DNA of 64,000 nucleotides from an uncultured virus (IMG/VR IMGVR_UViG_3300010234_000006) (IMGVR_UViG_3300010234_000006); one strand, 5' to 3'; shown: positions 1-59,181, counted from the stretch's first letter. Made by a program: numbers and translations. Notes: generated by a model not told the origin, from the sequence alone.

Positions 1-374
1 TTCTTGATGGGCTCCTCGCCACCCAGGTGGGCAATCTCAGAGTCACTCACGCTCGCTAGCTTCAAGAACTCCTCCTTGGCGAGCTGGAACCACTCATGAA
101 TCTCCGCCTTCGCCTGGTTGACAGTGAGGGCTTTGGGTTCGGAGGCGGGAAGCTTCATCCTGGCAACCACCTCGCTCATCTTCTGAGCCTGCTGCTCGAG
201 AAGGGCAGAGCCCTTTGCGATGATCACCGACTTCGACGCAAGAAAATTCGAGAGCGTGCTGAACTGCTCATCGGTGAGCTCCTTCTTCTTATCAGAAGTT
301 GCGGCTGCAATGGCGAGCAGGCCGCCTCCTATCACGACGCCCCAGAAGAGCTTTCCACGTTTCTTCTTCTTCAT
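1..374 (-). CDS. N-terminal-leader membrane protein, truncated at window start
   Basis: Manual translation MKKKKRGKLFWGVVIGGGLLAIAAATSDKKKE..., open to position 1; ATGA overlap with the stop of the 371-973 gene; absent from the ORF track. Confidence 0.8.
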   Translation of the reverse strand, partial: MKKKKRGKLFWGVVIGGGLLAIAAATSDKKKELTDEQFSTLSNFLASKSVIIAKGSALLEQQAQKMSEVVARMKLPASEPKALTVNQAKAEIHEWFQLAKEEFLKLASVSDSEIAHLGGEEPIK

Positions 375-973
375 GACTTCCTCTTCTTATCTCCCGACGT
401 GAAGCCGAGGTAGAAAAACACAATGCCTGCAGCGGTGAGCCCGACCGCGGCAACAATATCCTTTGATGAGAACCCGCCCTCGAGCGAGGGCTTCACTACT
501 GGCGCCTTGTCCGGGGGAGACGCCTCACCCCCATCATCCTCGTCCGAGACATTCTCGAGCAAGAGTGGACCAACAGCGTCGGCCCCGAGCTTTTCGATGT
601 AGTGGTCCTTGATGGCCTGAGGCGTTCTCCACCAGACATCGATGACCTGCTCCATCCCATTCCCGGTCTTCCACGACGGGAGGAATCCCTCTTCCCAGGC
701 CTTCGCCGTGGTCTTCTCGACGTGACCCAGGGTGAACGAAGGGTCTTCCTTTCTCAGAGTTGCGAAGTATTCTACGAGGCCTGGGGGAGCTGCGACCCAC
801 TGGCCACCGCTCGTCACCTGAGTGACGGGTCCGTGGTAGTAGTAGCCGAGGACGACGAGGTGAAGGTCGTCGCCGTGAATCTTCGCCTCGTCGTAGGCAT
901 CCTTCAGAATGGACTTGTCTCCTGTGCCGTACGCAAGGGCGAGAAGACGATTGAAGTCCTCGCGGCTTCTCAT
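371..973 (-). CDS. Tail-anchored membrane protein, GD..GP family
   Basis: AYGTGDKS...YYHGPV; C-terminal TM IVAAVGLTAAGIVFFYLG then basic tail. Confidence 0.8.
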   Translation of the reverse strand: MRSREDFNRLLALAYGTGDKSILKDAYDEAKIHGDDLHLVVLGYYYHGPVTQVTSGGQWVAAPPGLVEYFATLRKEDPSFTLGHVEKTTAKAWEEGFLPSWKTGNGMEQVIDVWWRTPQAIKDHYIEKLGADAVGPLLLENVSDEDDGGEASPPDKAPVVKPSLEGGFSSKDIVAAVGLTAAGIVFFYLGFTSGDKKRKS

Positions 974-1308
974 GCCTTCTTCTCCTTCTCTTTCTGCTTT
1001 TGCTTCTCGCGGTGGTTGAGAACTGCGTAGAGTGCACCCGCGGCAACGACGGCGCTGCCGAGCGCGATGAGGAGATTCGCGACGTTGTCACGAGACTTCG
1101 ACTCCTCTTCCTCATCGGCCTCTTCGACGGCCTCCTCGAGCTCTCCCGTCGTGAGCGCGCTGGACAGCTCCATGCGACGGTAGTAGTTCGGGTTCTCGTC
1201 GATGTGGTCCATCGCCGTGCCGAGAGCCTCGTACGGATCCATATCCGGATGCTCGGAGTACTCGGTCTGGAATCCTTGGATGATTTCGTCCATCGTCGCC
1301 ATGCTCAC
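970..1308 (-). CDS. DUF5661-like protein with C-terminal TM anchor
   Basis: GFQTEYSEHPD...AMDHIDENPNYYRRM resembles the DUF5661 E.EH...DHL.E.P.YY motif. Confidence 0.7.
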   Translation of the reverse strand: MSMATMDEIIQGFQTEYSEHPDMDPYEALGTAMDHIDENPNYYRRMELSSALTTGELEEAVEEADEEEESKSRDNVANLLIALGSAVVAAGALYAVLNHREKQKQKEKEKKA

Positions 1309-2426
1309 ACCTCGTTCTCAGCCCACTTGTATCTAGCGCAGAAGGAAGGCTTGTCCGTACCGAACCCCCTGCTCTCATCAGCCTGACCGAACAAATAGTC
1401 CGGCATGCGCTCCCTGATCAACAAGCTCATGGGGCTGACTTTGAGATCTGCGGCTTCCGGGTAGCTTTCCTCCAACCCATTCAGGACGTTCAGGATGTCG
1501 TTCTTGCTCATGGTTCTCCATCCCTGCCATTTCAGCTTCGAGGCCGAGGAAAGGGCCCTGGACAAATCAACCACCCGAGGGCTCTCGCCGAGGTCCTTGT
1601 CCCGAGAAATGTCACGGAAGTAGTTATGCACACTCTGGTTGTGCATGGTGATGTCGAGGTCCAAGATTATACGAGCATCCTTCTTCTTCCCTTCGGAGCT
1701 GTCGTAACCCTTGATCCCGGTGCCCATCTCTACGGCCCGGCTGAATCCATGCTCGATTGCCATATCCAGATCTACGAGTCTCCTCTTCCGATTGAAGAAG
1801 CTCTTTATGACAAGAGCGTGGTGGTCGAGCAGCTCCTCTCCTCGGGAATCGAGCATGGCCTCCGCAATGTCCGTGACGAGCATCTCGTACATTCTATTGT
1901 TCCAGCAGAGGTTCACGATGAATCCGTTTGGCATCGTGAACCTTGCTGCCTCAACATCCTGAAGAAAGAACGGAGGTCTGAACGACGGACTTGTGAATCC
2001 CCAGCTCGATGGGTATCCACCATGCGCATAGTGCTTGAAGTCTACATTCGAGAACCGACTGAAAGCATCTCCTCCAGAAAGCTCGTAGACCAGCCTGGCA
2101 ACATTGAGCGCCTCCTTCTTCAACTCATGGTAGTCGGCAGCTTGGACGAGACACTCCAGTGTCTCGAGCGGAGGCTGGTGTCCATCCGTTCGGCTGAACA
2201 TGCGGACAGCCTCAGCGGATGCAGCGATGACATCCTTTCCGCTCTCCATGCTGTACCGACGATGAAGCTCTCCGCCTCGCACAGAAGCACCCTCGAGGCC
2301 TCCCAGGGTGGGAAATGTGACGGTCGTGCACTTCGGCAGGCTTTTCCTTCTCTTTCCGCCTGTGGCTGCAACGATCGTCGCCGCGAGCCCCAAGCCGAAC
2401 AGTGCAACCTTTTTCCAGGTCTTCAT
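1305..2426 (-). CDS. N-terminal-leader protein (LCW..R motif family)
   Basis: Leader MKTWKKVALFGLGLAATIVAATGGKRRK; NLCWNNRMYEMLVTDIAEAM. Confidence 0.75.
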   Translation of the reverse strand: MKTWKKVALFGLGLAATIVAATGGKRRKSLPKCTTVTFPTLGGLEGASVRGGELHRRYSMESGKDVIAASAEAVRMFSRTDGHQPPLETLECLVQAADYHELKKEALNVARLVYELSGGDAFSRFSNVDFKHYAHGGYPSSWGFTSPSFRPPFFLQDVEAARFTMPNGFIVNLCWNNRMYEMLVTDIAEAMLDSRGEELLDHHALVIKSFFNRKRRLVDLDMAIEHGFSRAVEMGTGIKGYDSSEGKKKDARIILDLDITMHNQSVHNYFRDISRDKDLGESPRVVDLSRALSSASKLKWQGWRTMSKNDILNVLNGLEESYPEAADLKVSPMSLLIRERMPDYLFGQADESRGFGTDKPSFCARYKWAENEV

Positions 2427-3230: not shown

Positions 3231-3326
3231 TAATCCTGCTCCTTCACGCCGCCGGAGAACGTCATGCAATGGAAAAATGAGGGTTCCGAGAACCCAATCC
3301 AAAACCTGCTTCACAGTGGATTCGAG

Positions 3327-4670
3327 ATGGGGGATGAGCTCACCATCCCTCTACCGCTCGTGCTCACTGCGGCAGGTACGATCATCACCAATTTAGCAAA
3401 CCGGCGTCTGGAGCGCTCACTCGAGGAGCTCAGGGAGAAGAGAGACGAGGCCATTATTCGAGCACTGCTTGCCGAGCTTGTCTCCACCAATCAGGACTTC
3501 GAGCTTCCGAAGAAGAGAAGCAAGTACATCACCAAGGGAGACTTCAAGGACGCCGTTGGGAGCTTCCCGTTCGGGTACACCTACCGCGGCTCACGCTACG
3601 TTCACATCGGCGCAGTGCACGCTTACGGCGGAACTCTTCTCGATGAGATGCACAGAGCAGAGCAGGCCGTGTGTGCCACTGTGATGAAGCGAGAGGACGT
3701 CGTCTACAACGTCATCCGCTTTGATGCGAAGGACAACGCCATCGAGCTGTGGGACGTCGACAAGTTCGAGATCGAGGGACTCTCCTCTGTTCGATGCTCA
3801 CACCGAATCCAGCGACGAATTCGGAGGGTGAAGACCAAAGAGTACGATGAACAGATTCTTCGCCCGCTCGTGCTTCACCGGTCATCACTCGTGGTGCCCA
3901 CCCACGAGTCGCACTCTGAGCTCGAATCCTTCGATAGAGCATTCAAGATGTGTGGTCTTCACAAATACAAACCGAAGACCGTCGGCGAGCTCGAGGCTGC
4001 ACTGAAGGACAAAGGCCTCGCCATCGAGGGCAACTCCCTCGTGACGACCAGGCCGAGAAGAAGAGGAGAGAGAGGGTTCAGGCCTGAGAGAATCGTCCTC
4101 AACCCCATCGAGGGGCAAGCGCCAATCTTTGCGCTGGGAACGCCCCTCAGGCAGACAACCGAACATTCGGACAAGGGTGTCTCGCTGCCACTCCACTGGG
4201 CGCTCTCGCAGGGACTCGTGAACAAGTCCGCACTCGACCTCGGCTGCGGGGAGGGTGGAGACATCGAGGTGCTTCAGGCTCTCGGGTTCAAGGCTCGAGG
4301 ATTCGACCCAGAGTACGAACGCTTCGACCGGCCCGTGCCAGTGAGGACGAAGTTCCACTACCTGCAGTCGGTGTTCGTCCTCGACTTCGTGAGAGCGCAA
4401 GAGCGCGTCTCCATCCTCAAGACGCTCGTCAAGTCATCAAGGCGAGACGGCATCATCATGATTGCCGTTAGAACGCGAGAGTACGTTCGCTACCTCGGGC
4501 GCGTGAACAAGTGGACGAAGGAGAACCGGGGCTACGTCGACCCCGACAGCACCTTCCACGAAGGGTTCACGCAGGATGAGATCGTGGAGTCCGTTGAGAA
4601 GCACAAGGTCAACCTCGTTCACATCGAGGAGACCGAGAAGTACTTCATTATCGTTTTGCGTCGACGCTGA
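3327..4670 (+). CDS. SAM-dependent methyltransferase resembling the DNA phosphorothioation-associated putative MTase family, with hydrophobic N-terminus
   Basis: ALDLGCGEGGD, GFDP, VFVLDFV...ER; upstream domain YNVIRF...PLVLHR...GL. Confidence 0.75.
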   Translation: MGDELTIPLPLVLTAAGTIITNLANRRLERSLEELREKRDEAIIRALLAELVSTNQDFELPKKRSKYITKGDFKDAVGSFPFGYTYRGSRYVHIGAVHAYGGTLLDEMHRAEQAVCATVMKREDVVYNVIRFDAKDNAIELWDVDKFEIEGLSSVRCSHRIQRRIRRVKTKEYDEQILRPLVLHRSSLVVPTHESHSELESFDRAFKMCGLHKYKPKTVGELEAALKDKGLAIEGNSLVTTRPRRRGERGFRPERIVLNPIEGQAPIFALGTPLRQTTEHSDKGVSLPLHWALSQGLVNKSALDLGCGEGGDIEVLQALGFKARGFDPEYERFDRPVPVRTKFHYLQSVFVLDFVRAQERVSILKTLVKSSRRDGIIMIAVRTREYVRYLGRVNKWTKENRGYVDPDSTFHEGFTQDEIVESVEKHKVNLVHIEETEKYFIIVLRRR

Positions 4671-5175
4671 GCTCGTAGCGCTTGAGGCTGTCTGCGTCCA
4701 TCACGTCGTTCCCGAGAGAGAGAATGAAACGACGACCTGAGACAGGCGTTGCGCCCTCGAGCGTCTTCAGGTGGTTCGGGAACTGAACGTCGAGCTCCTG
4801 GTCCTTGATGGGTCCCTTGTGCGACCCGTTGTCGTACTCAGCGAAGATGGTCTCCCTGACTACGAGCTTTCCGTCCTGCAGTCCGCTCTTCAGGTGGCAC
4901 AGTCCGAACGACAACTCCTTAACGGGAGGACCCCACACGGAGATGCGGAGCTTCAGAGAGCCGTCTGGCTCGAGCGAGGCCTTGCGAATGTGAACCATCG
5001 CGTATCGCTTGTTCGCCGCGGTCTTCGGGTCGAAGCTCGGGCACTTCTTCAGGAAGTGTCCCTTGGCGACCTTTTCGTCTTCGGCCTCTTTGGAGCCTCC
5101 GTAGACGTTGTATCCGATGAGGAACCCCGCGCCCGCAAGTGCGCCCCAGATTATGCTCTTTGTCAGGCTCGGCAT
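4648..5175 (-). CDS. N-terminally anchored membrane protein
   Basis: MPSLTKSIIWGALAGAGFLIGY followed by a beta-rich soluble domain. Confidence 0.7.
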   Translation of the reverse strand: MPSLTKSIIWGALAGAGFLIGYNVYGGSKEAEDEKVAKGHFLKKCPSFDPKTAANKRYAMVHIRKASLEPDGSLKLRISVWGPPVKELSFGLCHLKSGLQDGKLVVRETIFAEYDNGSHKGPIKDQELDVQFPNHLKTLEGATPVSGRRFILSLGNDVMDADSLKRYELSVDAKR

Positions 5176-6029: not shown

Positions 6030-6239
6030 TTACTTGCCGGCCGATTTCCCAAAGGGGAGGAAGTCGCCGATATCTTCTTTGAGCCCGCTGAGCGCTTGCT
6101 CAGCTCCCTTAATTCCCTCGCCAAGACCCTCTCGAACCTCCGAGCGAATGTACGCGCTCTTAACAACTTTGTACGCGGCGTAAAAGCTCACCGAGCCAAG
6201 GATGAAGAACGCCACCTGTTGTGCGTTGACTTTGTTCAT
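6030..6239 (-). CDS. Small membrane protein
   Basis: VAFFILGSVSFYAAY TM; coupled to the upstream gene. Confidence 0.7.
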   Translation of the reverse strand: MNKVNAQQVAFFILGSVSFYAAYKVVKSAYIRSEVREGLGEGIKGAEQALSGLKEDIGDFLPFGKSAGK

Positions 6240-6643
6240 CAGGGCTCCAGCTTCGCCTCGGACTCTTGAAGGTCAGCAGCCGCTCTCACCTTCGCACCAA
6301 CCTCGAGGCATCCCTCGTGGTCCTTGTCCTCGATGGTGACCTTCGTCAGGTTCACCCCAGCAAGCATCTCGATGATGTCGAGCGCTGGGATCTTGGTAAA
6401 ATCGAACAGGGCGTGCGCGCCGTGCGGGACGTTCTCTCCGTAGCAGATGTCTCCGGAGATCCCGATAGAGACCTCCGTTCCGACCTTGCCGTGGGCGCTC
6501 GCATCGAAGTGCGTGCTCTCTGTCCCATTCTGAAGGAGGCGACCCTGCACCCCGTCGAAGCGAACAACGTTGTAAATCTCGGGGCATCCGGTGAGCACGA
6601 AAGAGCTCGACAAAATCACAGCCAAAAGAAGCGCTCTCATCAC
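6239..6643 (-). CDS. Lipoprotein
   Basis: Signal peptide with lipobox LTGC. Confidence 0.7.
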   Translation of the reverse strand: MMRALLLAVILSSSFVLTGCPEIYNVVRFDGVQGRLLQNGTESTHFDASAHGKVGTEVSIGISGDICYGENVPHGAHALFDFTKIPALDIIEMLAGVNLTKVTIEDKDHEGCLEVGAKVRAAADLQESEAKLEP

Positions 6644-7266
6644 TTGTTCTCCCTATTCTTCTTAATGAGGTATCTGGCGAGGAGCGCGAGGGCGAGTCCG
6701 GCCACCACCAAAGTCGTGGTGTTGTTCTTCTTCTCGCCCTTTTCGGAGGCCGCCACCTCAGCCGATGAATCCTCCTTGGGCTTCTCCTCTGCATCAGGCT
6801 TCAGACTCTCTGCGGGCTTCACCCCCGCGCCTATGGGCTGAAGCACCTGGGAGAGCATCGGAGCCTGGAAGGTCTCCTCGTACCTTTCGCGGCTAATCTT
6901 CCCATCGATAGGAATGTCGAAGTACTCGAGCATGACATCCCCACCAGGGGACGGAGCGGAGTACTTCACGACCATGGCCTTCCTGTGTATCTCACGAAGG
7001 CCTTCGAGGTAGTCGCTCATTGACGAGAAGATGGTCCCGTCGTACACGAAATTCGCATAGGCCATCTCGGTGTCGGGAGCCGTGTATCGAACGTCGCCGT
7101 TGTAGACGATGGGTCCGTTCATCGCGACCCAGGTCCAGATCGCCTCGTCGACATCCTTTGCGTCGTACGCGATGTAGTGCGCCTCTACCGCAGCTCGCCG
7201 GTCACCTTCAGAAGCTGCCATTCGGAGCGTCTTGTACTCTGCGTTCTGTTCGAGTTCTGGCTTCAT
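6640..7266 (-). CDS. Tail-anchored membrane protein, GD..GP family
   Basis: AASEGDRRAA...WVAMNGPI; C-terminal LVVAGLALALLARYLIKK. Confidence 0.8.
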   Translation of the reverse strand: MKPELEQNAEYKTLRMAASEGDRRAAVEAHYIAYDAKDVDEAIWTWVAMNGPIVYNGDVRYTAPDTEMAYANFVYDGTIFSSMSDYLEGLREIHRKAMVVKYSAPSPGGDVMLEYFDIPIDGKISRERYEETFQAPMLSQVLQPIGAGVKPAESLKPDAEEKPKEDSSAEVAASEKGEKKNNTTTLVVAGLALALLARYLIKKNRENK

Positions 7267-7778
7267 CGCTTCTTTTTCCTCTTGAGCCACCGATAACCAA
7301 GGTATACGGCGCCCACGCCTACGATAACAACAACCACCGGGGAGACGCTCTCTTTTTCACGAGCGCCCTTCGCAGTTGCCGCCACAGCGCCGTCCTGGTC
7401 GAGTGGTTCGTAGAGCTCGCCCCCGGGCGCCCTGATGGGGATGTCGACAAATGTCTTCCCTCCCTCAATCCACCGAGAGAGCGCTCGCTGGGCAATGAGC
7501 TCGACGGCCACCTCGTCCACTTCGTTTGCTCGAGCAAAAAGGCTCCCAGGAGGCCTTACGAGGTACTCGTCCACCCATGCGCGGTAATCAGAGCTTCCGG
7601 CGCCCGAGACGGCGAGTGGGCCGCTCGCTGCGTGGAATGAGAGGATGGCTCCCGATGGATCTCGCATCGCCATCGAGTGTTCGAAGATGCGGCCAGCAGC
7701 CTGCCTGTCCCCGAGCATCATGGACTCGAGGTTTCTGTCGTAGGCCGCGGCGTCGAGGAGAGGGCTCTGCTCAGGCAT
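7263..7778 (-). CDS. Tail-anchored membrane protein, GD..GP family
   Basis: MMLGDRQAA...FHAASGPL; C-terminal VVVVIVGVGAVYLGYRWLKRKKKR. Confidence 0.8.
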   Translation of the reverse strand: MPEQSPLLDAAAYDRNLESMMLGDRQAAGRIFEHSMAMRDPSGAILSFHAASGPLAVSGAGSSDYRAWVDEYLVRPPGSLFARANEVDEVAVELIAQRALSRWIEGGKTFVDIPIRAPGGELYEPLDQDGAVAATAKGAREKESVSPVVVVIVGVGAVYLGYRWLKRKKKR

Positions 7779-8334
7779 TGGTCACTTCCCCTTGCTGGCC
7801 CGTGAGCTTCTGGAAGAGCTCAAAGGCGATGACTCCACCTGCGATGATGAGGAGCGTCTGGAGGATGTCTCCGGAGTCCCATGAGAACTGGGGGCTCTTC
7901 TTTGCGACACCCGTCTTCTGGTCGACACGTGCGCGAACGTCGATGTGCCATGCCGATGGTCCAGGCTGCCCCAAGGATGGACGGGGCTGATACTGGGCGA
8001 GGTAGTTCTGAGAGAGCATCTTCGCGACGGCGTTCTTCCACCGACGGTTTCCGCCAGAGCCGTAGGCCGCCTTCATGAGCTTCGTGTAGGCCGTATCCTT
8101 GAGCTCCTTGTAATCGGGTGGCTCAACGACAAGGGATCCAGTCGGGCTCTTCGTCGCGCCGTTGATGACATACCAGGCTACGGGGATGAAGTCCCAGTAG
8201 TCCTTCTTCTGGTTCGTCACCACATACCGAAGCCAGTCCATGGCCTTCTTCGAGGCGTCAGAGGCATTCGGGTTCTGGGTGAAGTAGAGAAGGTAGCCGT
8301 TGAGCTCCTTGTCAGTGAGAGTCTTTTTCGCCAT
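7771..8334 (-). CDS. Tail-anchored membrane protein
   Basis: C-terminal LLIIAGGVIAFELF; WYVINGA may be a remnant of the family motif. Confidence 0.75.
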   Translation of the reverse strand: MAKKTLTDKELNGYLLYFTQNPNASDASKKAMDWLRYVVTNQKKDYWDFIPVAWYVINGATKSPTGSLVVEPPDYKELKDTAYTKLMKAAYGSGGNRRWKNAVAKMLSQNYLAQYQPRPSLGQPGPSAWHIDVRARVDQKTGVAKKSPQFSWDSGDILQTLLIIAGGVIAFELFQKLTGQQGEVTNA

Positions 8335-8346
8335 CGGCTTTACCCA

Positions 8347-8802
8347 TCATGCGCGCGGCTTCGTGAGCCACTTGTAGATGCCAATCATACCGAGGATGAC
8401 TGCGCTACCGCCAACGACGATCTCCCCCGGACCTATCTTCTTCTCACCCTGCTTGGACATGGCGGCGCCTGCAGGGCGCGCTTGACCACCACCATTCATG
8501 GCAGCCTGAACGTGAGGAAGCTCTTCAAATGATGAAGGGCATTCCGTCGGCTGGTTCTCTTCTGTGAACGACCAGTCGAATCCAAATTCTCTCGGCCTGT
8601 TCCCCTGGTGCTCGAGCACCGTCTGCCTGAACGTGACGGCGTCGTAAATCTGCTGGGCAAGCTCTTCGCTGTCTTCCGTCCAGAGCAGGCACCAGAATAG
8701 AGTCGCCTCGAGCCCGAGAGGCTGAAGGAACTGCTGGTCGAGCGAGATGGAGAAGAGCCAGTCGAGCCCGATGTCATTCTTCAGATGTTCCCCAACCCTC
8801 AT
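8347..8802 (-). CDS. Tail-anchored membrane protein
   Basis: C-terminal IVVGGSAVILGMIGIYKW; RBS before MRVGEH. Confidence 0.75.
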   Translation of the reverse strand: MRVGEHLKNDIGLDWLFSISLDQQFLQPLGLEATLFWCLLWTEDSEELAQQIYDAVTFRQTVLEHQGNRPREFGFDWSFTEENQPTECPSSFEELPHVQAAMNGGGQARPAGAAMSKQGEKKIGPGEIVVGGSAVILGMIGIYKWLTKPRA

Positions 8803-8813
8803 CGTTCCCCTCT

Positions 8814-9584
8814 TCAGCTCTTGCGAGTCACGGCCCAAGCAACGCCTGCAGCGATAAGGGCTCCGACGAGAATCTTCCCGACGCTCATCCCTTCCTTCTT
8901 CTCCGAGTCCTTCTTGGGGGACTCGACCTTGTCATCACCGACGTACACCTTGCAGATCTTCTCGAGCTGCTCCTCGGTGTGTTTCGGCTCTGGCGTCTCA
9001 AGGCTTTGCCTGACATCCTCGGGCGAGCGCCCCCAGATGTCAATGAGGCCTTCCCACTCGACCAAGTCGCCCTGAGCCTTCATCGCCTCGGTGAGAACGT
9101 AGGCAGCCTCGGGCGTGTCGAAGTGATTCCTGGTCGAGACGAGCTCGTTGATGGAAACCTCGAACGGACTCGGAGTCTCGCCCTCACGACGGGTCGAGAG
9201 TGGCCCATTGAGAGCAATCCATGAAAGAAGACCGTGAGCGTATCGACTATAGTCCGCTCGGCCTTCAGAGAGGTCGAGGAGCTGCGCTGCGGCCTGCTTG
9301 TCGGATTCGTTCAGAGCCTTATAGAGGATGTCGTGGTAGTCGCTCGCCTTTGCGTCCCTCGAGGCCTCAATCGAAATGAGGTCTGCAGGCATGCCCCATC
9401 CATGAATCGAGACCACATTCGTCAGAGCGTTGATTTCGGCATTGACGAGAAGCCCGTCCTGCCGAAGTGATTCGGGAACCTGGTCGCCGAGGTCAAACGC
9501 ATCGCCGCTGTCGACGAGCGTGATCCCCCAGAACTCAGTTCCGTCTGGAGATGTTTCACGTGAAAGCAAGCCCTTCACAATCAT
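8814..9584 (-). CDS. Tail-anchored membrane protein, GD..GP family with extra N-terminal beta domain
   Basis: ALNESDKQAAA...WIALNGPL; C-terminal ILVGALIAAGVAWAVTRKS. Confidence 0.8.
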   Translation of the reverse strand: MIVKGLLSRETSPDGTEFWGITLVDSGDAFDLGDQVPESLRQDGLLVNAEINALTNVVSIHGWGMPADLISIEASRDAKASDYHDILYKALNESDKQAAAQLLDLSEGRADYSRYAHGLLSWIALNGPLSTRREGETPSPFEVSINELVSTRNHFDTPEAAYVLTEAMKAQGDLVEWEGLIDIWGRSPEDVRQSLETPEPKHTEEQLEKICKVYVGDDKVESPKKDSEKKEGMSVGKILVGALIAAGVAWAVTRKS

Positions 9585-9597
9585 CGCTTTACCCTCC

Positions 9598-9963
9598 CTA
9601 TCCTCGGTTCTGCATCTTCGCGTGATGCACTTCGGTGCAGAAATAGATGTCCATGTTGAACGCACCCGCGACGGCATCGATCACAAGACTGTCGGAAGCA
9701 ACGGCGAGCCGGTACCTCTTTCCCTCGGTGAGTCCATTCATGACGGGCGTCCCTGGTATGCCAGGAGCGCCCGGCACAGGAGCAACGGGAACGTTCACCG
9801 CGGCGGCCTTTCGGAAAAGCGCCATGATGCGCTGGTTCGCAGGAACCATGAACACAACGACGCCAGCTGCCTTCATGTCGGCTGTGAGCGGGACAACGAC
9901 CGGGGCTCCTGCGCTGAGCGTCAGCGTGTAACCAAATCCACCTACGATTCTATCCCAGCTCAT
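9598..9963 (-). CDS. Small beta-rich protein (possible minor structural protein)
   Basis: Alternating hydrophobic strands; lies in the structural cluster; ATGA coupling. Confidence 0.55.
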   Translation of the reverse strand: MSWDRIVGGFGYTLTLSAGAPVVVPLTADMKAAGVVVFMVPANQRIMALFRKAAAVNVPVAPVPGAPGIPGTPVMNGLTEGKRYRLAVASDSLVIDAVAGAFNMDIYFCTEVHHAKMQNRG

Positions 9964-11012
9964 CGCTTCTTCCTCCACCAGAGTACGCCGCCAACGAGGG
10001 ACAGGATGGCGAGGAAGATCCCACCACCACCACCGCCCTTACTCGTCCCACCTGTTCTGAATGCCACGGAACCATCTCCGAGGCCTGAGGTGACGAACGC
10101 TGGCACGCTACCATCAACGTGCCTCGGCTTCACAGAATAATCGAGTCTCTTCGCAGAGATGTCCGTGGGGATGGGGCCCGAGCCGAACCGGTCCTTGATC
10201 TCTTTGAGTCGACCGAGCTCGCCATTCTTGTGGTAGTGCTTCAAGTAGAGCTGGTGAAGGACCTGGTCCTCGTTGGCGTTCTCTGGCCAACCCACCTCAG
10301 CCACGGCCTTCGCGATCCTCTTTCCGCTACCCGTCTTTCCGTACGAGTTCGCGTGTCGCGCGAGAGCCGCTGCAGAGGAGGCCTTCTTGAATCCGTACTC
10401 ACGAGCCTTCGCCACGCCCCACCTGAGCTTTCCGAGAGACTCGTGGGTGTACCACTCGACGACCTTTGGGTGACGAGCAATCTCGTGCCACCCGGCGACG
10501 AAGAAGTCCCACTTCTCGCTGTCCCACCAATCGGGGAAGTCCCAGCGTTTGAAGTTTGGCTTGGGGTACTTCGGATTGTCGATGAGCCTGCTCGGTGCCG
10601 TGTCGTTCGTTCGGCGAGGCATGATCGATACCATGCCCTTGGGATCTGAAAGGAGCTCGGCCCCGTCCTCACCCCACGCATGCACGGCAATCTTCCGATT
10701 CTCTGGACTCTTTCTGATAAACTCAGAGAGGTCCTCAAAGAAGCTCGGATACGTGTCGTGTGCAAATCCGACGGATGCTGTGTCGAGCGTGTGGTACGCA
10801 TCGAATGGACGAGTCGTCTTTCCGCCCGAGTCGATGTTTGCGAGCTGCCGAACAAACTTCCGAACGAAGTCATCGCCGGCCGTCATCTCGAGCATCTGTT
10901 CATCGCGCACACCAGTGCCGTAGTACGGGAAGTGCCGATAGCCCTCTTCGGGCTTCCCTCCGTTGTGCCGCCACCTCGAGGTGGGGACCGGGTGCTTCGG
11001 TGCGATGGCCAT
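9960..11012 (-). CDS. Lysozyme-like peptidoglycan hydrolase candidate with C-terminal TM anchor
   Basis: FDAYHTLDTASVGFAH resembles the FDAINTxD..SxG..Q motif of lysozyme/chitosanase-like folds; C-terminal IFLAILSLVGGVLWWRKKR. Confidence 0.5.
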   Translation of the reverse strand: MAIAPKHPVPTSRWRHNGGKPEEGYRHFPYYGTGVRDEQMLEMTAGDDFVRKFVRQLANIDSGGKTTRPFDAYHTLDTASVGFAHDTYPSFFEDLSEFIRKSPENRKIAVHAWGEDGAELLSDPKGMVSIMPRRTNDTAPSRLIDNPKYPKPNFKRWDFPDWWDSEKWDFFVAGWHEIARHPKVVEWYTHESLGKLRWGVAKAREYGFKKASSAAALARHANSYGKTGSGKRIAKAVAEVGWPENANEDQVLHQLYLKHYHKNGELGRLKEIKDRFGSGPIPTDISAKRLDYSVKPRHVDGSVPAFVTSGLGDGSVAFRTGGTSKGGGGGGIFLAILSLVGGVLWWRKKR

Positions 11013-41234: not shown

Positions 41235-41284
41235 TGTGTGACACAGGAGTCAGCACTGTGACACAACGAGATCTAGCGTGTCAA
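41235..41284 (-). promoter_or_regulatory. Related promoter/operator (copy 3)
   Basis: Minus strand TTGACA-18nt-CACAGT with two GTGTCACA boxes. Confidence 0.55.
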
Positions 41285-52219: not shown

Positions 52220-52456
52220 CTACTTCGTGTCCACAGCTGCGGCCGTGTCGGAGCCAGCCGTGTCAGCTGAGCCCTCTGTGTCGGCAGCAGCTTCGGTGTC
52301 TTCGGCAGCCTCTGAGTCTTGCGCTGCTTCGGTGTCCTGTGCCGAATCGGATGAGTCCACGTCCTGCTCTTCGACGGCCGGCTTCTCATCGGGCTTCTTC
52401 TCGGCGTCGCACGAGATGGGGGCAAAGGCAAGAATGGCAATGATGATGTAACGCAT
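52220..52456 (-). CDS. Small acidic lipoprotein
   Basis: MRYIIIAILAFAPISC; low-complexity D/S/A/T tail. Confidence 0.65.
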   Translation of the reverse strand: MRYIIIAILAFAPISCDAEKKPDEKPAVEEQDVDSSDSAQDTEAAQDSEAAEDTEAAADTEGSADTAGSDTAAAVDTK

Positions 52457-53008: not shown

Positions 53009-54313
53009 ATGAAGACCATTACAAAAATAACGATCGGCCTGGCTGCAATCGGGCTTGGTGCTGCGGCTCTTGGGAAAGGTAAGTCATCTGATGATGAGGA
53101 TTCTCCATCGAGCTGTCCTGTCATCTTCTCCGGACAGCTCGATTCCAAAGACAAGGTGTCGTTCGACCTGTGCATCAGAAACCTGATGAAGCCCGAGGTG
53201 GTCCAAAACGCCCTCTCGGTAGCTCGCACCCATCTTGGGAAGCACAAATCGCACGCAGAGGATGTAGTATTCGACCTCGTCGTAAAGGTCTGCAGCGAGA
53301 GGCATGAAGAGTTTGGGTCTCGAGACTTGAGGCCAATCGGGCTGTTCATAGAGACATTGAAGAAGAATGCCAAGTGGAAGTATTCAAGGCTCGAGAAGTC
53401 TTCTGACGTCGCAGAGCGAAACAGCCTTGTTGCCCAGCAGATTTTTGGAGAGGTTCCGAGTGAGTCTGGATTCGATTACAGCGAAACGGTTCCGGCAATT
53501 CTTCGAGTCCTGAACCGCCTTGATGACGACCTCAGGCAGGCCTTCATCCTCTTCTATCTCGAAGGCAAGAGCTTTTCCGAAGTCGCAACGTGCCTTGGCG
53601 TTAGCAAGCTTAAGGCGACGACATGGGCTCATACAGCCCGCATCTACCTCTGGCTCTATGTGGCGCGAAAGATCTTCGGGTGGAGCGCCAAGGAGATCGT
53701 CAGCAAAGCTGCTCGAAACAAGGATATCTCCAAAGGCCTTTCGTACTCAGCCCCTCTCCATAACATTAGAGTTCTCCTGTTGGGCACGAAAGGCGTTGGA
53801 ATGCTCATAAAGAGAGCGAAGTCAGTCATAGGGGAGGAGGCCTGGGATGCTCCCATTAAACAGAATTCGGCTGGGACATTCTGTGTGCTCCCAGAGCCCG
53901 GTGCGCCTCCTGGCTCGTCCGTAAGCATCACGCCGGAACAGCTTGCTGAGTTGAGGTACGCCGTCACTGAAGTGTGGCACCTCTGGCCGTCAGCTGTTCG
54001 GGCTGACGTTAACTTCGCATGGGTGACCAACAAAGCCAGCGAAGAATTTCGAAATGAGCTCATTCAGGTGCGCGAAACTCTGATGGATATCGTGCACCAG
54101 ATCATGCACGCCATCGACACCGGAGACTGCCATGCTCTGCCGCTCTTGAGCGAAAGCATGCAGAAAGCCCAGTGGGACTACTTCAGACAGGTATCCCAGT
54201 ACGATGTCTTCTCCCCAGGGCGCCAGCTGCTGCAAGAGTGGAACCGGGAGACGCTCGATCTTCGGGAGGCACTCGACCGCGTGGGCGAGCTGATAGCCTC
54301 ATTCATCGCCTGA
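53009..54313 (+). CDS. ECF-sigma-factor-like protein with N-terminal membrane leader
   Basis: Leader MKTITKITIGLAAIGLGAAALGKGK; HAEDVVFD (region 2); LNRLDDDLRQAFILFYLEGKSFSEVATCLGVS (region 4). Confidence 0.75.
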   Translation: MKTITKITIGLAAIGLGAAALGKGKSSDDEDSPSSCPVIFSGQLDSKDKVSFDLCIRNLMKPEVVQNALSVARTHLGKHKSHAEDVVFDLVVKVCSERHEEFGSRDLRPIGLFIETLKKNAKWKYSRLEKSSDVAERNSLVAQQIFGEVPSESGFDYSETVPAILRVLNRLDDDLRQAFILFYLEGKSFSEVATCLGVSKLKATTWAHTARIYLWLYVARKIFGWSAKEIVSKAARNKDISKGLSYSAPLHNIRVLLLGTKGVGMLIKRAKSVIGEEAWDAPIKQNSAGTFCVLPEPGAPPGSSVSITPEQLAELRYAVTEVWHLWPSAVRADVNFAWVTNKASEEFRNELIQVRETLMDIVHQIMHAIDTGDCHALPLLSESMQKAQWDYFRQVSQYDVFSPGRQLLQEWNRETLDLREALDRVGELIASFIA

Positions 54314-54347: not shown

Positions 54348-54920
54348 ATGAAGACCGTAACCAAGATTCTCATCGCCGCAGGAGCCATCGCCGGCCTCGC
54401 AGCCGCTTCATCATCGGACGGAGGGGAAGATATCGACCCGAACGACATCGAAGCCTGGGCGAAGAGGCGCAGCGCCCCTGGGAGAAGTGCTGCGATCGAA
54501 CGCGCTCGAACGGGAATCGAGCAAAGAAACGGGCAATCATTGCCCGATTCCATACCGCTCGAGCATCTACGTGTGTTTCTCGGGCAAGTGAAGCCCGTTC
54601 GAGGTAGCGAAACAGTGATGAGGGAGTTCGAGGGAACCCCCTACGAGGTGTCCTCTGGGATTGAGATCAGACAGAGGGAATCCGAATCGTTCATGTACGC
54701 AGGGAGCATGGAGATCCCGCAGCCTGGAATCAAAATCAAGTCCTTCAGCCCGAGCAGCAAAGATCTGGCCGACCTTATCACCGCAGCCACCAGTCCCATC
54801 GAGCCAGGAGATGATGTCTGGGATTGGAGTGACTCGAGAGGGCCGCTTTCCGGAGTTGGCGGCCTCGCCATCATTCGAGACGGCCGAGTCATCGCACAGA
54901 CCCAGACATGGGTATCTTGA
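54348..54920 (+). CDS. N-terminal-leader protein
   Basis: MKTVTKILIAAGAIAGLAAASSS; GPLSGVGGLAIIRDGRVI. Confidence 0.7.
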   Translation: MKTVTKILIAAGAIAGLAAASSSDGGEDIDPNDIEAWAKRRSAPGRSAAIERARTGIEQRNGQSLPDSIPLEHLRVFLGQVKPVRGSETVMREFEGTPYEVSSGIEIRQRESESFMYAGSMEIPQPGIKIKSFSPSSKDLADLITAATSPIEPGDDVWDWSDSRGPLSGVGGLAIIRDGRVIAQTQTWVS

Positions 54921-55054: not shown

Positions 55055-55101
55055 CGAAAAGAGAAGGGACGCGCCAGCTAGCGCGTCCCTTTCTCGTTTT
55101 C
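55055..55101. terminator. Bidirectional terminator between convergent genes
   Basis: GAAAAGAGAAGGGACGCG...CGCGTCCCTTTCTCGTTTTC. Confidence 0.7.
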
Positions 55102-55485: not shown

Positions 55486-56232
55486 TCACCATAGATGCGG
55501 CTCCCTCTCTTCGGTACTGGGATACTCCGAAGCCATATCGTACAGCACTTTCCGCGCATTCGACTTGTCTATGGGGGAAGGGCCTTCACGCCACCAGAAC
55601 CAGTGCTCAGGGCGAAGGCCCACGTATCCAGGATCGGGCTCAGACCGCTTCGCATCCAAGACACCTGCCTTCCAGCCGTTTTCATCTCGCCACACCACAA
55701 GGGCCTCGTAGTTGCCAAAATACCTATGGAGATGCACAACCCAAGCGAGAGGGGATAGAGGGTCTTGCGAGAAAGGCTCTTCCTTCATCGACCATGGGAC
55801 GTCAGAGTCGAATTTGAACCGTATTCTCTCAGTCTCAACTGGTCCAAGTCCTATTCGAGTAGCGACATCCTGCATGGATGCAAGCACAGCTTCAGGCATA
55901 ATCAAGCGACGCATCTCCGCTCTCTCCAGAGCCTCCCTGGCGGAACTGTCGTCCGGGTTGAGAGCCAAGCGTCGTCGGAGCTCAGCTATGACGTCCTCGT
56001 TGGAGGCTCCAAGTGCTTGTGGCGACGCCACCTCATCGCCTTCGATGAGACCATGGGCAAAGCTACCCATGATTCCGCCCACAGAGCCTGCAAGAAGCGC
56101 ATAGAAGGTGACCTCGGGGATCCCCATAGGGTCATACAGCCGTGGATTCTTCTTGTAGTCGAGGTGACGCTTTGCCACGACGTATGCGAATGTTAGCGCT
56201 GCACCTCCGATGACGAAGCCTTCCTTACTCAT
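55486..56232 (-). CDS. Protein with two N-terminal TM segments and a soluble cargo domain
   Basis: FVIGGAALTFAYVVA; FYALLAGSVGGIMG. Confidence 0.65.
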   Translation of the reverse strand: MSKEGFVIGGAALTFAYVVAKRHLDYKKNPRLYDPMGIPEVTFYALLAGSVGGIMGSFAHGLIEGDEVASPQALGASNEDVIAELRRRLALNPDDSSAREALERAEMRRLIMPEAVLASMQDVATRIGLGPVETERIRFKFDSDVPWSMKEEPFSQDPLSPLAWVVHLHRYFGNYEALVVWRDENGWKAGVLDAKRSEPDPGYVGLRPEHWFWWREGPSPIDKSNARKVLYDMASEYPSTEEREPHLW

Positions 56233-56262
56233 CGCTCTCATCCCTCCCTGTGAATGACCGAT

Positions 56263-56577
56263 TCAATCGAAGGTCCACCTTTCCTGTTCCCCATCGTTCA
56301 CAATCTCTCCCGCGATGTCGGTCACGACATCGCCGATGGTATCGATCGTATCACTTCCTGGTATGTCGGGGATGACATCGATGTTCTCGATCGCCTCTTC
56401 GACTTCTTCCTTCGCAGCCTTTGCTCCCTCGGTGAGGCCTTCGACGAGGGCATCTTTGAGGTCTGCGAATGCCTTCTTCGTGTACGAAGCTTCGATAGCC
56501 TTCCAGATTACGGTGCCCGTGATGACCCCTCCGAATATGAGTAGGCCCTTCTGAAACGGGCTCAAATCCTTCTTCAT
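56263..56577 (-). CDS. Small N-terminally anchored acidic protein
   Basis: GLLIFGGVITGTVIW. Confidence 0.6.
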   Translation of the reverse strand: MKKDLSPFQKGLLIFGGVITGTVIWKAIEASYTKKAFADLKDALVEGLTEGAKAAKEEVEEAIENIDVIPDIPGSDTIDTIGDVVTDIAGEIVNDGEQERWTFD

Positions 56578-57250: not shown

Positions 57251-57817
57251 CTAGACCCACAACTCGAAGTACGGGTCGTCTTGGCTCCATTCACCGGAGC
57301 CCGTGTGTTCGAATCCCATCTCGTCCAAGAGTCGGGCCATGTTTGGGTTCACCACCCAGGCCTCGAGCCTCACGGGCCTGCCGTAGCTCAGGGAGACCTG
57401 CCTGTAGTGCTCGACCAAGGCAGCCACGAGTCTCGAGCCAACGCCGCGCCGTCGCATCTTCGGGCTCACCACCGCGCTGAAGCGAACGAGCAGCATCTCA
57501 TCGTTCTCACCGGGACTCCCGGCGAACATGGAGCCAACGACGTCGCCCTCTTCGGTGATGCATGCGTAGAGAGGTTCCTCGTACGATGAAAGGTTGATCC
57601 CCGCCTCGGTGAATAGCTCCTCGGCGGCGTTGACGATCTCCCAGTAGTCCGCGGCCCCTGGATATTCGTCGTACTCCCATCCCCCGTCATCGATCGCGTG
57701 AATGCTGCAGCTTGGCATTTTTCCCTCCTCGAGCGCGGCATCATCACTCCCGCGACCGAGAATGGCAAGCACAACGCCTCCTGCAAGAAGGGATGCTGCA
57801 ATTTTCCAGACCTTCAC
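57251..57817 (-). CDS. GNAT acetyltransferase with N-terminal membrane leader
   Basis: VVSPKMRRRGVGSRLV; NPNMARLLDEMGF; leader KVWKIAASLLAGGVVLAILG. Confidence 0.8.
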   Translation of the reverse strand: MKVWKIAASLLAGGVVLAILGRGSDDAALEEGKMPSCSIHAIDDGGWEYDEYPGAADYWEIVNAAEELFTEAGINLSSYEEPLYACITEEGDVVGSMFAGSPGENDEMLLVRFSAVVSPKMRRRGVGSRLVAALVEHYRQVSLSYGRPVRLEAWVVNPNMARLLDEMGFEHTGSGEWSQDDPYFELWV

Positions 57818-58632
57818 ACTTCCTCCTGGCATCCGATCTCATCGCCAATGAGGTAGCTCCAGAGCTTCTCGTTGAATCTCTCCGTTGCCTCGCCAGTGCT
57901 CATTACGATGCTGGGATCTCCCTTGCTCATAGCGTAGACGAAGTAGCGCTTGATGTCCCGAGCGGCGCTTATCGACTTCGGGCTCGCAGCTCGAACGAAG
58001 AACTCGCGCACACCGTATGGGACATTCGTCGGCGTGTCGGCCTTTGTCGCCGCATTGTACAGGGCGATGAAGTCATCTCTCGCATCCGACATGGTCTTCT
58101 TGCCCACAGCTCCGATAGCGTACTGGCGAATCACCTCAGCGAGCTGCTGAGTTGGCTTGAAGTCTTCCTCGTACTCCTCGACGATGATGTCGTGCATCTC
58201 ATCGGCGAGGTCTGCGAGGAAGAGACCTGCGTGCCGCTCTGACCAGCAGAGCTTCGCTCCGCGAAAGTACATGGTCTGGTACAGGGCCGGAGGTCGCAGG
58301 TCAGATGCCTTCAGGGGGCGAATCTCGATGTGGCTGAAGCCGTCGATGGCGTCGTAGGGCTTTCGGTATTTCGAACCGCCTGCCTCCGCGAGCTTTCGCT
58401 CTTGGAGCATCATCATCTTGGCTATCTCTCTCGCCGCATCGTGGTCCCCACGTCGAACAGCCTCCCTCATGGCGCCCTGGCCCGCCTCCCCGAGGGGGTC
58501 CGAGCTTGCGTCGAGCATGAGTCGCTCGAGCTGAGGAGCTCGACTCACCTTGTCGTTCCCTCCGGACGAGAGAAGGGCCGCGGCTCCCACCGCAGCCCCA
58601 AGACCTAGTATGACCTTTGTGCTGTTCTTCAT
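57814..58632 (-). CDS. N-terminal-leader protein (LCW..R motif family)
   Basis: MKNSTKVILGLGAAVGAAALLSSGG; GAKLCWSERHAGLFLADLA. Confidence 0.75.
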   Translation of the reverse strand: MKNSTKVILGLGAAVGAAALLSSGGNDKVSRAPQLERLMLDASSDPLGEAGQGAMREAVRRGDHDAAREIAKMMMLQERKLAEAGGSKYRKPYDAIDGFSHIEIRPLKASDLRPPALYQTMYFRGAKLCWSERHAGLFLADLADEMHDIIVEEYEEDFKPTQQLAEVIRQYAIGAVGKKTMSDARDDFIALYNAATKADTPTNVPYGVREFFVRAASPKSISAARDIKRYFVYAMSKGDPSIVMSTGEATERFNEKLWSYLIGDEIGCQEEV

Positions 58633-58653
58633 CGAGGAATCCGTTTCTGTTTT

Positions 58654-59181
58654 TTACCAGAGGGTGGGCTCGCCCATTCCTATGAGGTAGATCGTGTCGG
58701 CAACCCACGATTTGATGATCGATGGCGCTTTGGAGGAAAGGCGCTTTCCGGGATCTCCCCACGCATCCTGCATCAGCTCAATCTGTCTCTGCAGGACTGC
58801 AGAGACACGATCCAGATCCTGCCTGGGAAGCTCACGAAGAACGCGCGAGAGGTGCTTCATTATTTGATAGACACGCTCGCTCTCGCTTGCACTCTGATTG
58901 TAGTCCTGCTCATCATCGAGGGCATCTTCGATGACCATGAAGAGGTCGGAAAGGAGGAACGATGAAATTTCATCGGCCGACATTTCCATGCCGGACGAAG
59001 CTGCAGCGAACGCAGGGTTTGAGCGAGATGCGACAAACCTATCAACCATCCGCTGGTTCGCCTCTTCCTTCTTGTCCTTCTCCCCGCCATCTTCGGCCTT
59101 CTTTCCCTTTCCGCCCGAAGCTGCGGCGGCAATGGCCGCAATCGCAGCCGCTCCGAGTGCCAGTTTTGTTCCTGTCTTCAT
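58654..59181 (-). CDS. N-terminal-leader protein
   Basis: MKTGTKLALGAAAIAAIAAAASGGKGKK. Confidence 0.75.
   Translation of the reverse strand: MKTGTKLALGAAAIAAIAAAASGGKGKKAEDGGEKDKKEEANQRMVDRFVASRSNPAFAAASSGMEMSADEISSFLLSDLFMVIEDALDDEQDYNQSASESERVYQIMKHLSRVLRELPRQDLDRVSAVLQRQIELMQDAWGDPGKRLSSKAPSIIKSWVADTIYLIGMGEPTLW

Follow-up and report, generated by a model that had tools for sequence, protein, structure and literature searches.

Gly/Ala-rich terminal membrane anchors on varied genes of an apparently tailless uncultured virus: a candidate signal for sorting to the virion membrane

Tailed phages are known to package effector proteins and deliver them, as with the T4 internal proteins and the polyvalent proteins. 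In polyvalent and MuF-fused effectors, as presented in PMC9503650 and PMC7824862, GNAT and ART-PolyVal domains are predicted to be packaged and delivered, and the ART-PolyVal class is described as virion-borne and injected (PMC9503650). The domains are chained there in one large polypeptide or fused to a head protein, whereas in the DNA described here each has a membrane anchor of its own. A single terminal helix between basic residues is found on virion proteins P11 and P16 of PRD1 and PR772, those of PRD1 being described as N-anchored (PMC6750898), and on gp34, gp41 and gp53 of SSIP-1. The SSIP-1 anchors (7/57 genes, two annotated as structural) are Gly/Ala-rich and C-terminal, as are several of those reported below.

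The DNA analysed (the window) comprises 64 kb of a contig of 73,251 bases from an uncultured virus. The initial annotation had described at least eleven genes starting with a common membrane leader, and all eleven leaders listed were found, at 374, 2426, 5175, 12211, 13057, 14092, 57817, 58632 and 59181 on the minus strand and at 53009 and 54348 on the plus strand. In every one a short n-region precedes 16–19 uncharged Gly/Ala/Leu-rich residues, followed by an S/G/K-rich segment. A basic n-region, ascribed earlier to the whole set, is present in 10/11, 13057 being the exception. The GTG start at 57817 overlaps the stop codon of the upstream gene. The earlier reading had missed N-terminal anchors at 56241, 56577 and 6239, as well as nine anchors of similar kind at C-termini, within the two gene blocks described below. 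The N-anchored genes are the following:

1–374, minus strand: N-anchored gene, cargo unassigned; leader at residues 1–27 with a strongly basic n-region; the gene continues past the window edge
1305–2426, minus strand: N-anchored gene, 373 aa; leader at residues 1–24, then four basic residues; no Pfam, PHROG or NCBIfam match
4648–5175, minus strand: N-anchored gene, 175 aa, weaker leader
6030–6239, minus strand: small N-anchored gene, 69 aa, too short for the counting rule, which starts at 90 aa
11012–12211, minus strand: N-anchored gene, 399 aa, first of three paralogues
12227–13057, minus strand: N-anchored gene, 276 aa, second paralogue, without basic n-region
13070–14092, minus strand: N-anchored gene, 340 aa, third paralogue
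53009–54313, plus strand: N-anchored ECF-type sigma-70; domain at about residues 67–205, plus about 220 C-terminal residues of no assigned kind
54348–54920, plus strand: N-anchored gene, 190 aa; most signal-peptide-like leader, with an acidic segment behind the helix; no homologue found
55486–56241, minus strand: N-anchored gene, 251 aa, additional to the original eleven
56263–56577, minus strand: N-anchored gene, 104 aa, additional to the original eleven
57251–57817, minus strand: N-anchored GNAT acetyltransferase, 188 aa, single domain, of a viral GNAT family also found in polyvalent proteins
57814–58632, minus strand: N-anchored gene, 272 aa
58654–59181, minus strand: N-anchored gene, 175 aa, top match to the leader profile

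The two normally cytoplasmic cargo domains named in the initial annotation are real. The ECF-type sigma factor matches Pfam Sigma70_r4_2 above the cut-off and NCBIfam sigma70-ECF below it (E = 3.6e-7), with no sequence match in the PDB; the GNAT matches Pfam Acetyltransf_1 above the cut-off. Searches in Pfam, PHROG and NCBIfam gave no nameable domain for 9/11 leader genes and no cell-wall-degrading domain on any of them. The cargos are less unrelated than had been supposed: since 12211, 13057 and 14092 are paralogues (28–36% identity to each other), the eleven genes represent nine cargo types, and only the sigma factor and the GNAT can be named. A P-loop-like string at 53063 is a chance match inside a leader. 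The two SAM methyltransferases, credited earlier with hydrophobic N-termini, have weaker and differently built segments:

3264–4670, plus strand: SAM methyltransferase, TIGR04096-like; hydrophobic segment at residues 26–42, not of the leader type
20426–21145, minus strand: SAM methyltransferase, TIGR04096-like; two weak hydrophobic segments, below the anchor threshold

Similarity among the leaders exceeds what their composition would give, with a mean BLOSUM62 local score of 33.3 against 26.2 ± 1.0 in shuffles that kept n/h/c composition, and 0/200 shuffles reach 33.3. They are not one tight family, as just 6/11 rank first among 117 termini in a leave-one-out HMM, the weakest being the GNAT leader (rank 12). 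Four-fold third positions are identical in 87/318 cases, 0.27 versus 0.26 expected, and no common DNA repeat links the leaders, which rules out their recent duplication at the DNA level. Judged from sequence, the window leaders are an old and divergent physico-chemical class, occurring also at C-termini, and no freshly bolted-on cassette. The C-terminal members are:

371–1302, minus strand: two genes (371–973, 970–1302), each with a Gly/Ala-rich C-terminal anchor and a basic tail
6640–9677, minus strand: five successive C-anchored genes (6640–7290, 7263–7778, 7771–8334, 8347–8838, 8814–9677), one domain family being common to three
9960–11012, minus strand: C-anchored gene, 350 aa
59193–60143, minus strand: C-anchored gene, 316 aa, with the domain family of 6640–7290; its reversed anchor scores leader-like

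Read in reverse, the C-terminal anchors score better against the leader profile than read forward in 6/9 cases, a modest mirror effect. A kinship of the 58632 cargo with the five-member C-anchored family was discarded (E = 0.3, within the shuffled range). By one rule, with a lower limit of 90 aa and 109 hand-picked window genes, 23/109 have a single terminal anchor, 13 at the N-terminus and 10 at the C-terminus, against 6/85 in the tailed Myxococcus phage Mx8 (Fisher p = 0.008); the same rule gives 7/57 for SSIP-1 and 3/31 for PRD1. Anchored genes lie in two blocks in 22/23 cases, with one in the 14–53 kb stretch between; the block borders were drawn after the genes had been seen, and the Fisher test for block clustering is therefore not relied on. 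The short Gly/Ala-rich helix between Lys/Arg residues is N-terminal in 13 genes and C-terminal in another 9 to 10, and the two blocks also hold shell-like and histone-like genes:

9598–9963, minus strand: small beta-sandwich protein with a jelly-roll-like model, possible vertex or minor shell protein; pLDDT 61, best Z 7.7
14234–14944, minus strand: beta-rich candidate shell protein; no confident fold from the single sequence (pLDDT 30), atlas TM 0.44–0.45
17406–18236, minus strand: histone-H1-like Lys-rich protein (276 residues, with 87 Lys and 22 Arg), candidate core protein for DNA condensation

The 9598–9963 model (pLDDT 61) gives Z 6.0–6.6 to the vertex proteins of PRD1, PR772 and PM2, and 7.7 to other structures.

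The GNAT is the one cargo whose history can be traced, and its two closest homologues (52% and 49% identity) lack an anchor, in agreement with the earlier view of the leader as a portable tag. An N-terminal anchor is found on 13/150 representatives of the family, the window GNAT included, and a test on 49 rows, with 7 changes, speaks against a single clade for the anchored members, which is rejected at p-AU 0.009. The tree, made by a quick method, is poorly resolved with few starred branches, and gain and loss are not told apart in it. Across the family this cargo, on the evidence of such comparisons, gains and loses an anchor of this kind. Portability is supported for this single traceable cargo, and the window class itself is old. 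A pattern-limited search of the genome collection returned no cellular relative, an outcome in favour of the earlier view, as is the difference from E. coli export signals given below. Other family members have soluble N-terminal tags, defined as patterns after the sequences had been seen: L-x-E in nine, R-x-N-P in seven and K-L-A in several. The K-L-A tag occurs on 5/17 ORFs of L005, 5/25 of L006 and 6/12 of L009 (one false match each in L005 and L006), and also in a phage of 232 kb, which gave terminase-like matches and weak matches to a sheath protein and has 0/256 Gly/Ala-rich N-anchors. PF03237 was without match in G001 or G002, and the G001/G002 search gave matches to phrog_2, which we take to be 'terminase large subunit'. 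ART-PolyVal is present in 5/30 scanned GNAT-family matches, all long members, the 30 having been picked from the 150.

These family links bear on a reading in which the anchors hold proteins at the infected cell's inner membrane, as an assembly site or for membrane-bound regulation, and the enzymes stay out of the particle. Pro-sigma factors held at the membrane are known, as are membrane-bound regulators; the sigma factor and the GNAT can work in the producing cell, and 53009 and 54348 form a separate plus-strand unit with a terminator-like hairpin at 55063–55092. However, the GNAT family elsewhere occurs inside polyvalent effectors or with tags of the capsid-targeting type, and the anchored genes share their two blocks with shell-like genes, so that we hold an inner-membrane tether to be rather unlikely.

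Three contigs of 2–4 kb (L002–L004), from which the type of their virus is not evident, hold 12 tandem genes with one common anchor, different from that of the window. Recent copying is visible at the DNA level (73–90% identity; anchor third positions identical at 0.79 and 0.69 versus 0.30 expected), and the cargos behind this anchor include the same GNAT, ART-PolyVal, pentapeptide and others. Leaders of these contigs have a conserved Gly-Ser junction, which suggests a cut in that lineage; the window GNAT junction, Arg-Gly-Ser-Asp-Asp, misses the pattern. Release by proteolysis, proposed earlier as a possibility, found no support in the window: no junction motif is common to its leaders, only compositional k-mers being enriched, and no protease was recognised. 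It could also be argued that the anchored proteins have, without exception, an ordinary structural role in the membrane of a lipid virion, the sigma and GNAT folds having been captured for structural use or arisen as by-products of fusion, with no delivery. The nine genes of unassigned domain, the paralogue expansions and the sub-threshold NCBIfam score of the sigma factor fit this view, as does the N-anchored P16 of PR772, the soluble part of which is described as clamping the capsid (PMC6750898). Yet the window GNAT keeps the invariant residues of its family at 34–57% identity to its relatives, and enzymes including ART-PolyVal stand behind the one copied anchor; we regard a purely structural role as improbable.

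Comparison with 20 E. coli export signals, E. coli being a stand-in for the actual host, separates the leaders from ordinary cleaved Sec signals in composition. Their Gly+Ala fraction is 0.50 versus 0.28 (p = 1e-4), and at least two Lys/Arg occur in the eight residues behind the helix in 9/11 leaders versus 2/20 E. coli signals, and in 11/12 of the relatives on L002–L004. The leaders without this cluster are 54348, which resembles a cleavable signal, and 57817. Lipoprotein signals for signal peptidase II were discarded, the lipobox Cys being found in 0/14 N-anchors and in separate lipoprotein-type genes of the window. Nevertheless, the n-region charge (mean +2.1 versus +2.25; net +1 to +3 in 9/11) and the h-region length (7–15 residues or more) are as in Sec signals, and the Ala-rich helix ends contain A-x-A-like sites. 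These features would be expected if ordinary Sec signals or signal-anchor-release (SAR) domains exported the cargo to the periplasm or to a PRD1-type vesicle lumen. Acetyl-CoA and RNA polymerase, however, are cytoplasmic, as are the kinds of cargo that can be named. In the L002–L004 relatives, moreover, the n-region is uncharged and the first charged residue behind the helix is Lys/Arg in 12/12, and similar helices stand at C-termini, a position in which an export signal cannot work. The SAR domains that phage endolysins carry, as described in PMC9239132, resemble the leaders in their Gly/Ala-rich N-terminal helix with 1–3 basic residues before it, but their cargo is a Sec-exported periplasmic cell-wall enzyme, whereas in the leaders basic residues cluster behind the helix, the cargo is of cytoplasmic type, and hydrophobicity on the Kyte-Doolittle scale is not unusually weak (2.39 versus 2.10 for the E. 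coli signals). Export is accordingly highly improbable.

The term tailless is provisional, as it refers to 64 kb of the contig. Terminase, portal, HK97 capsid and tail gave no match in 105 + 23 ORFs of the 64-kb window, nor did a prohead protease; among 106 ORFs searched in Pfam none matched a terminase, portal, HK97 prohead or prohead protease, and no P-loop ATPase was found in the six frames of the 64 kb. The FtsK/A32-type packaging ATPase is described as missing in some tailless groups (PMC5894146). No relative of the virus appeared in viral contig scans (14234–14944, the three-paralogue alignment, 16257–16940 and two leader DNA patterns), protein searches with 14234–14944 and 54348–54920 returned the window's own protein alone, and none of 54348, 14234, the GNAT core, the sigma domain and the methyltransferase had a tblastn match among phages or plasmids.

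Taking the foregoing together, we propose that the leaders are uncleaved single-helix anchors, which act as a sorting signal to the virion membrane of a large bacterial virus with a membrane and apparently no tail (probability about 0.55), the anchor probably being used to load cargo into the lipid-containing particle. In the model, the anchor would insert where a patch of the host inner membrane gives rise to the internal membrane of the particle, the cargo staying on the cytoplasmic side. With the anchor in the future virion membrane, any fused domain would therefore be co-packaged. The majority of the anchored proteins probably have a structural role in the membrane; the sigma factor and the GNAT, as the minority, would be host-takeover enzymes carried along, which could enter the next cell upon genome delivery by the viral membrane. 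Release from the membrane would be optional, by a cut at the Gly-Ser junction in the related lineage and with none visible in the window. We infer the capsid fold, as we do the presence in the virion, the topology and proteolysis of the anchored proteins, the virion role because the GNAT is tied to polyvalent effectors and capsid-targeting-type tags, and like anchors stand on structural proteins of SSIP-1 and PRD1.

A wider proposal, more tentative than the first, is that large tailless lipid phages have a delivery system of their own, in which a copied anchor loads a sigma factor, acetyltransferases and ADP-ribosyltransferases inside the virion membrane, a protease would release them at the Gly-Ser junction in at least one lineage, and the GNAT family would be re-addressed between tailed and tailless viruses by a swap of tags. 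In such a system the Gly-Ser junction also separates the domains of multidomain cargos. If true, the tag would provide a simple rule to predict what the virion contains and which effectors act early, in a virus group that is poorly known and nearly absent from the viral and phage collections searched. It would also provide a handle of 25 residues with which proteins could be loaded into membrane vesicles. It would be unusual for a virion to carry a sigma factor held at the membrane, and the junction of the relatives makes the release step directly testable.

Sigma factors kept at the membrane by an N-terminal extension are represented by pro-sigmaE and pro-sigmaK of Bacillus, which are sporulation-specific and cut by a dedicated membrane protease. 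These are cellular, whereas the window extension is common to unrelated genes and no such protease was identified. With tailless internal-membrane viruses, the window shares many small single-anchor membrane proteins in a structural block. It differs from SSIP-1 and PRD1 in its higher proportion of anchored genes, in a class of N-terminal leaders that SSIP-1 lacks, and in the annotation of anchored proteins, none of which is a sigma factor or acetyltransferase in those two; the sole sequence match to that set is a resolvase. In the literature searched, largely open-access papers, no paper was found in which effector cargos of tailless phages have a membrane leader in common. A functional parallel would be the capsid-targeting sequence (CTS) of T4 IPI-III and Alt, described in PMC9026906 and PMC3012670 as a short N-terminal tag common to unrelated and variable cargos, whose classes overlap with those discussed here (ADP-ribosyltransferase, acetyltransferase); starts of the L-x-E type on GNAT-family members add to the likeness, and the sharing of one tag among unrelated cargos is stronger in L002–L004 than in the window. 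In those sources, however, the CTS is soluble and 10 residues long, is held by a protein scaffold and is cleaved by gp21 after L/I-X-E, whereas the window tag is a membrane helix at either terminus, with no L/I-X-E end and neither an HK97 head nor a prohead protease seen. The membrane anchor would thus do the job of a soluble capsid-targeting sequence without being one.

All eleven leader genes have the starts and N-termini that the initial annotation gave them; its observation is real and its interpretation right in part. The leaders, Gly/Ala-rich single membrane helices at the N-terminus (N-anchors), form one class by likeness (33.3 against 26.2 ± 1.0 for shuffles within the n, h and c regions, with 0 of 200 shuffles as high), and four of them, at 53009 (the ECF-type sigma gene), 54348, 58632 and 59181, have the common start M-K-[TN]-x-T-K. 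They are not, however, joined by a DNA repeat, since none linking them was found in the window, nor do they make a tight profile family: their synonymous positions agree at chance level (87/318), and with a leave-one-out profile 6 of the 11 rank first among 117 termini, the leader of the GNAT gene at 57817 being 12th. Their cargos had been called unrelated, but the genes at 12211, 13057 and 14092 are paralogues of each other. The hydrophobic N-termini of both methyltransferases (TIGR04096-like), mentioned along with the leaders, are different and weaker segments.

That the leaders are ordinary Sec export signals is very unlikely from a comparison with 20 E. coli precursors (periplasmic, outer-membrane and lipoprotein) chosen by us from three annotated regions. 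The n-region charge is alike (+2.1 in leaders, +2.25 in E. coli signals) and the 54348 leader is still signal-like, but a basic cluster directly follows the helix in 9/11 leaders against 2/20 signals, and Gly+Ala is 0.50 against 0.28 (p 1e-4, with E. coli as a stand-in for the host). The lipobox is on no leader and is present on separate lipoprotein-type genes, with a cysteine after a hydrophobic stretch:

6239-6643, - strand: lipoprotein-type gene
21749-21982, - strand: lipoprotein-type gene
23145-23714, - strand: lipoprotein-type gene
52220-52456, - strand: lipoprotein-type gene

Terminal anchors of the same class are established on many genes. Defined as a single helix at one terminus of a protein of at least 90 aa without lipobox, they were found on 23 of 109 genes hand-picked from the ORF list of the window, 13 N-anchored and 10 C-anchored, 22 of them sitting at 1-14.1 kb and 53-60.1 kb. 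The same rule gave 6/85 in the tailed phage Mx8 (p=0.008 against the window), 7/57 in the tailless membrane phage SSIP-1 (p=0.20) and 3/31 in PRD1. In the profile test the best-scoring non-leader termini were C-anchors of the window itself. The C-anchor of 59193-60143 scored 16.8 bits backwards against 8.8 forwards, and the reversed C-anchor outscores the forward one in 6/9, a mirror relation that is suggestive only. Hence the anchor signal is for the most part physico-chemical in nature and serves at either end of a protein. One paralogue family (signature G-D-R-x-A-A ... W-x-A-x-x-G-P) carries C-anchors on four of five members:

2489-2968, - strand: member without C-anchor
6640-7290, - strand: C-anchored member
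7263-7778, - strand: C-anchored member
8814-9677, - strand: C-anchored member
59193-60143, - strand: C-anchored member, with three 37-nt repeats (59388-59550) encoding Q-T-F-D-F in its stalk

GNAT is the sole cargo with relatives found. Searching 1.84 billion representatives with a profile yielded 1221 matches, and 13 of the best 150 examined carry an N-anchor, the window GNAT included. The closest homologues (52% and 49% identity) have no anchor at all, a point the initial annotation had proposed to check, and are the sister group of the window GNAT (SH-aLRT 91). On a tree of 49 of 151 rows (33 best-ranked matches, P0004, all other anchor carriers and the rows next to these on the tree) the anchor label changes 7 times and a single clade of carriers is rejected (p-AU 0.009). 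The GNAT anchor has been gained or lost, the two being not separable on this tree, which was built by a quick method with LG+G4. Cellular homologues with the same N-terminus, held to speak against a portable leader, were not seen: neither the genome collection nor the GenBank phages yielded a family member, both searches being limited in reach.

Soluble-tag patterns, set after inspecting the sequences and with some false matches, were found at the N-terminus of other GNAT members: among the best 150 of 1221, L-x-E on 9 and R-x-N-P on 7 (P0024, P0063, P0088, P0097, P0098, P0118 and P0151; also at 25740-26612 of contig L014), and K-L-A on several. The GNAT of contig L001 has no tag. K-L-A peptides are common to neighbouring genes of large phage-like contigs (L005 877-10283, L006 761-11077, L009 1865-9225; also G001), where the cargos are ART-PolyVal, DnaJ, PARP and GNAT, and they look like a separate capsid-targeting tag. 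A 232-kb record with a K-L-A-tagged GNAT has a match to phrog_2, which we take to be terminase, a weak sheath match and Gly/Ala-rich N-anchors on 0/256. The L-x-E pattern can be likened to the T4 gp21 site L/I-X-E (PMC9026906). ART-PolyVal, present also in five long GNAT-family members, belongs to a class described as virion-embedded and then injected (PMC9503650, PMC7824862).

In three contigs of 2-4 kb (L002-L004), whose GNAT is 43-44% identical to that of the window, 12 tandem genes carry a near-verbatim common anchor, different from the window's, before GNAT, ART-PolyVal, pentapeptide repeats and other cargos; L004 also encodes a C-anchored M15-type peptidase. This anchor was copied recently, because its DNA is 73-90% identical over 60 nt and the match at its four-fold third positions is 0.79 and 0.69, where 0.30 would be expected. 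Its n-region is uncharged and the basic residues follow the helix, the reverse of a signal peptide. The junction after the helix is conserved: Gly-Ser-[ARVLG]-[ANSKR] occurs in 11/12 anchored GNAT representatives other than the window's (0.98 expected), in 0/137 other representatives and, in similar form, in 11/12 genes of L002-L004. It recurs internally in 4/4 long multidomain anchored members (4 against 0.36 expected; 5 against 4.6 in the rest). The junction of the relatives would suit a protease site or the remnant of a gene fusion. In the window, for whose leaders the initial annotation thought release by proteolysis possible, no such shared motif was seen. The sole protease-like motif seen in the window is the H-E-x-x-H of 21152-21745 (- strand), a protein with matches to phrog_13834 (E 1e-32) and to a single uncultured phage of 485 kb.

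The 64-kb window comes from a contig of 73,251 bases and has 57% GC and nearly all genes on the minus strand. Accessory genes of phage type are present (resolvases, HNH, VRR-NUC, HU, C5 methylase; Pfam, PHROGs), and terminase, portal, HK97 capsid, tail, polymerase and helicase had no match in the 64 kb (Pfam, 106 ORFs; PHROGs, 105 plus 23 alternative ORFs). From these genes the virus is apparently tailless, which we take as a working reading. Of two beta-rich candidate shell proteins, 14234-14944 gave no fold on structure prediction and 9598-9963 gave a jelly-roll-like sandwich model of pLDDT 61, whose scores are middling both against PRD1, PR772 and PM2 vertex proteins (Z 6.0-6.6) and against unrelated sandwiches (Z up to 7.7). 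Other features are:

16257-17342, - strand: protein with an acidic arm (61 Asp/Glu per 110 residues), directly downstream of the histone-H1-like 17406-18236; the two are a possible chaperone and core protein pair
19183-19192: 10 N in a row, an assembly gap within + strand ORF 18674-19375
26151-26477, - strand: small hydrophobic protein, no family matched (Pfam, PHROGs, NCBIfam), with spaced His/Glu/Asn/Asp residues reminiscent of membrane metal-dependent hydrolases
37601-38188, - strand: CsrA-like regulator
41281-41703, - strand: second Sigma70_r4 protein, without anchor
60815-61504, + strand: membrane protein resembling fatty-acid hydroxylases/desaturases (PF04116 at E 7e-6, under cut-off), of interest if the virus carries lipid
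32151-32185, 34656-34690 and 41230-41263: repeat of 35 nt between genes (89% identity), plus a partial copy in inverted orientation
36369-36514: 26-nt inverted repeat, upstream within gene 35368-36786; like the 35-nt repeat, a possible operator or recombination site
36824-37507 and 44356-44940: serine recombinases near both repeats

We propose, with a probability of about 0.55, that the anchors sort cargo to the virion membrane. In the model, the anchor would insert in the host inner membrane with the cargo on the cytoplasmic side, the membrane patch would turn into virion membrane and co-package the cargo, which would act in the next cell. Delivery requires the cargo to face the DNA; therefore assembly around a condensed genome, as proposed for PM2 (PMC6356626), would be needed, and not a PRD1-type empty vesicle, whose cytoplasmic membrane face lies against the capsid. 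The histone-H1-like protein (17406-18236, - strand; 87 Lys and 22 Arg in 276 residues) and the lack of a P-loop ATPase in any frame of the 64 kb fit such assembly but do not show it. A membrane role of the anchors without packaging is unlikely, and a purely structural use of them less likely still.

The sorting model has precedents in known phages. In SSIP-1, a cultured tailless phage containing membrane (PMC6356626), gp34 and gp41, annotated as structural, have C-anchors of the same kind as the window's, and gp53 has one next to a second helix. SSIP-1 gp41 also has E-N-P at its start and ahead of its anchor (compare the R-x-N-P leaders of GNAT relatives). PRD1 P11 and P16 have N-anchors, like the window, and in PR772 P16 the helix spans residues 7-28 and the remainder binds the capsid (PMC6750898). 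In T4 a 10-residue capsid-targeting sequence is enough for packaging foreign proteins (PMC9026906, PMC3012670). The window anchors would act like that sequence of T4 internal proteins but do not belong to its class, and no description of a membrane-anchor counterpart was found in the literature searched. To these systems the window adds a sigma cargo, an anchor at either end and a single enzyme family, GNAT, with a history of swapped tags.
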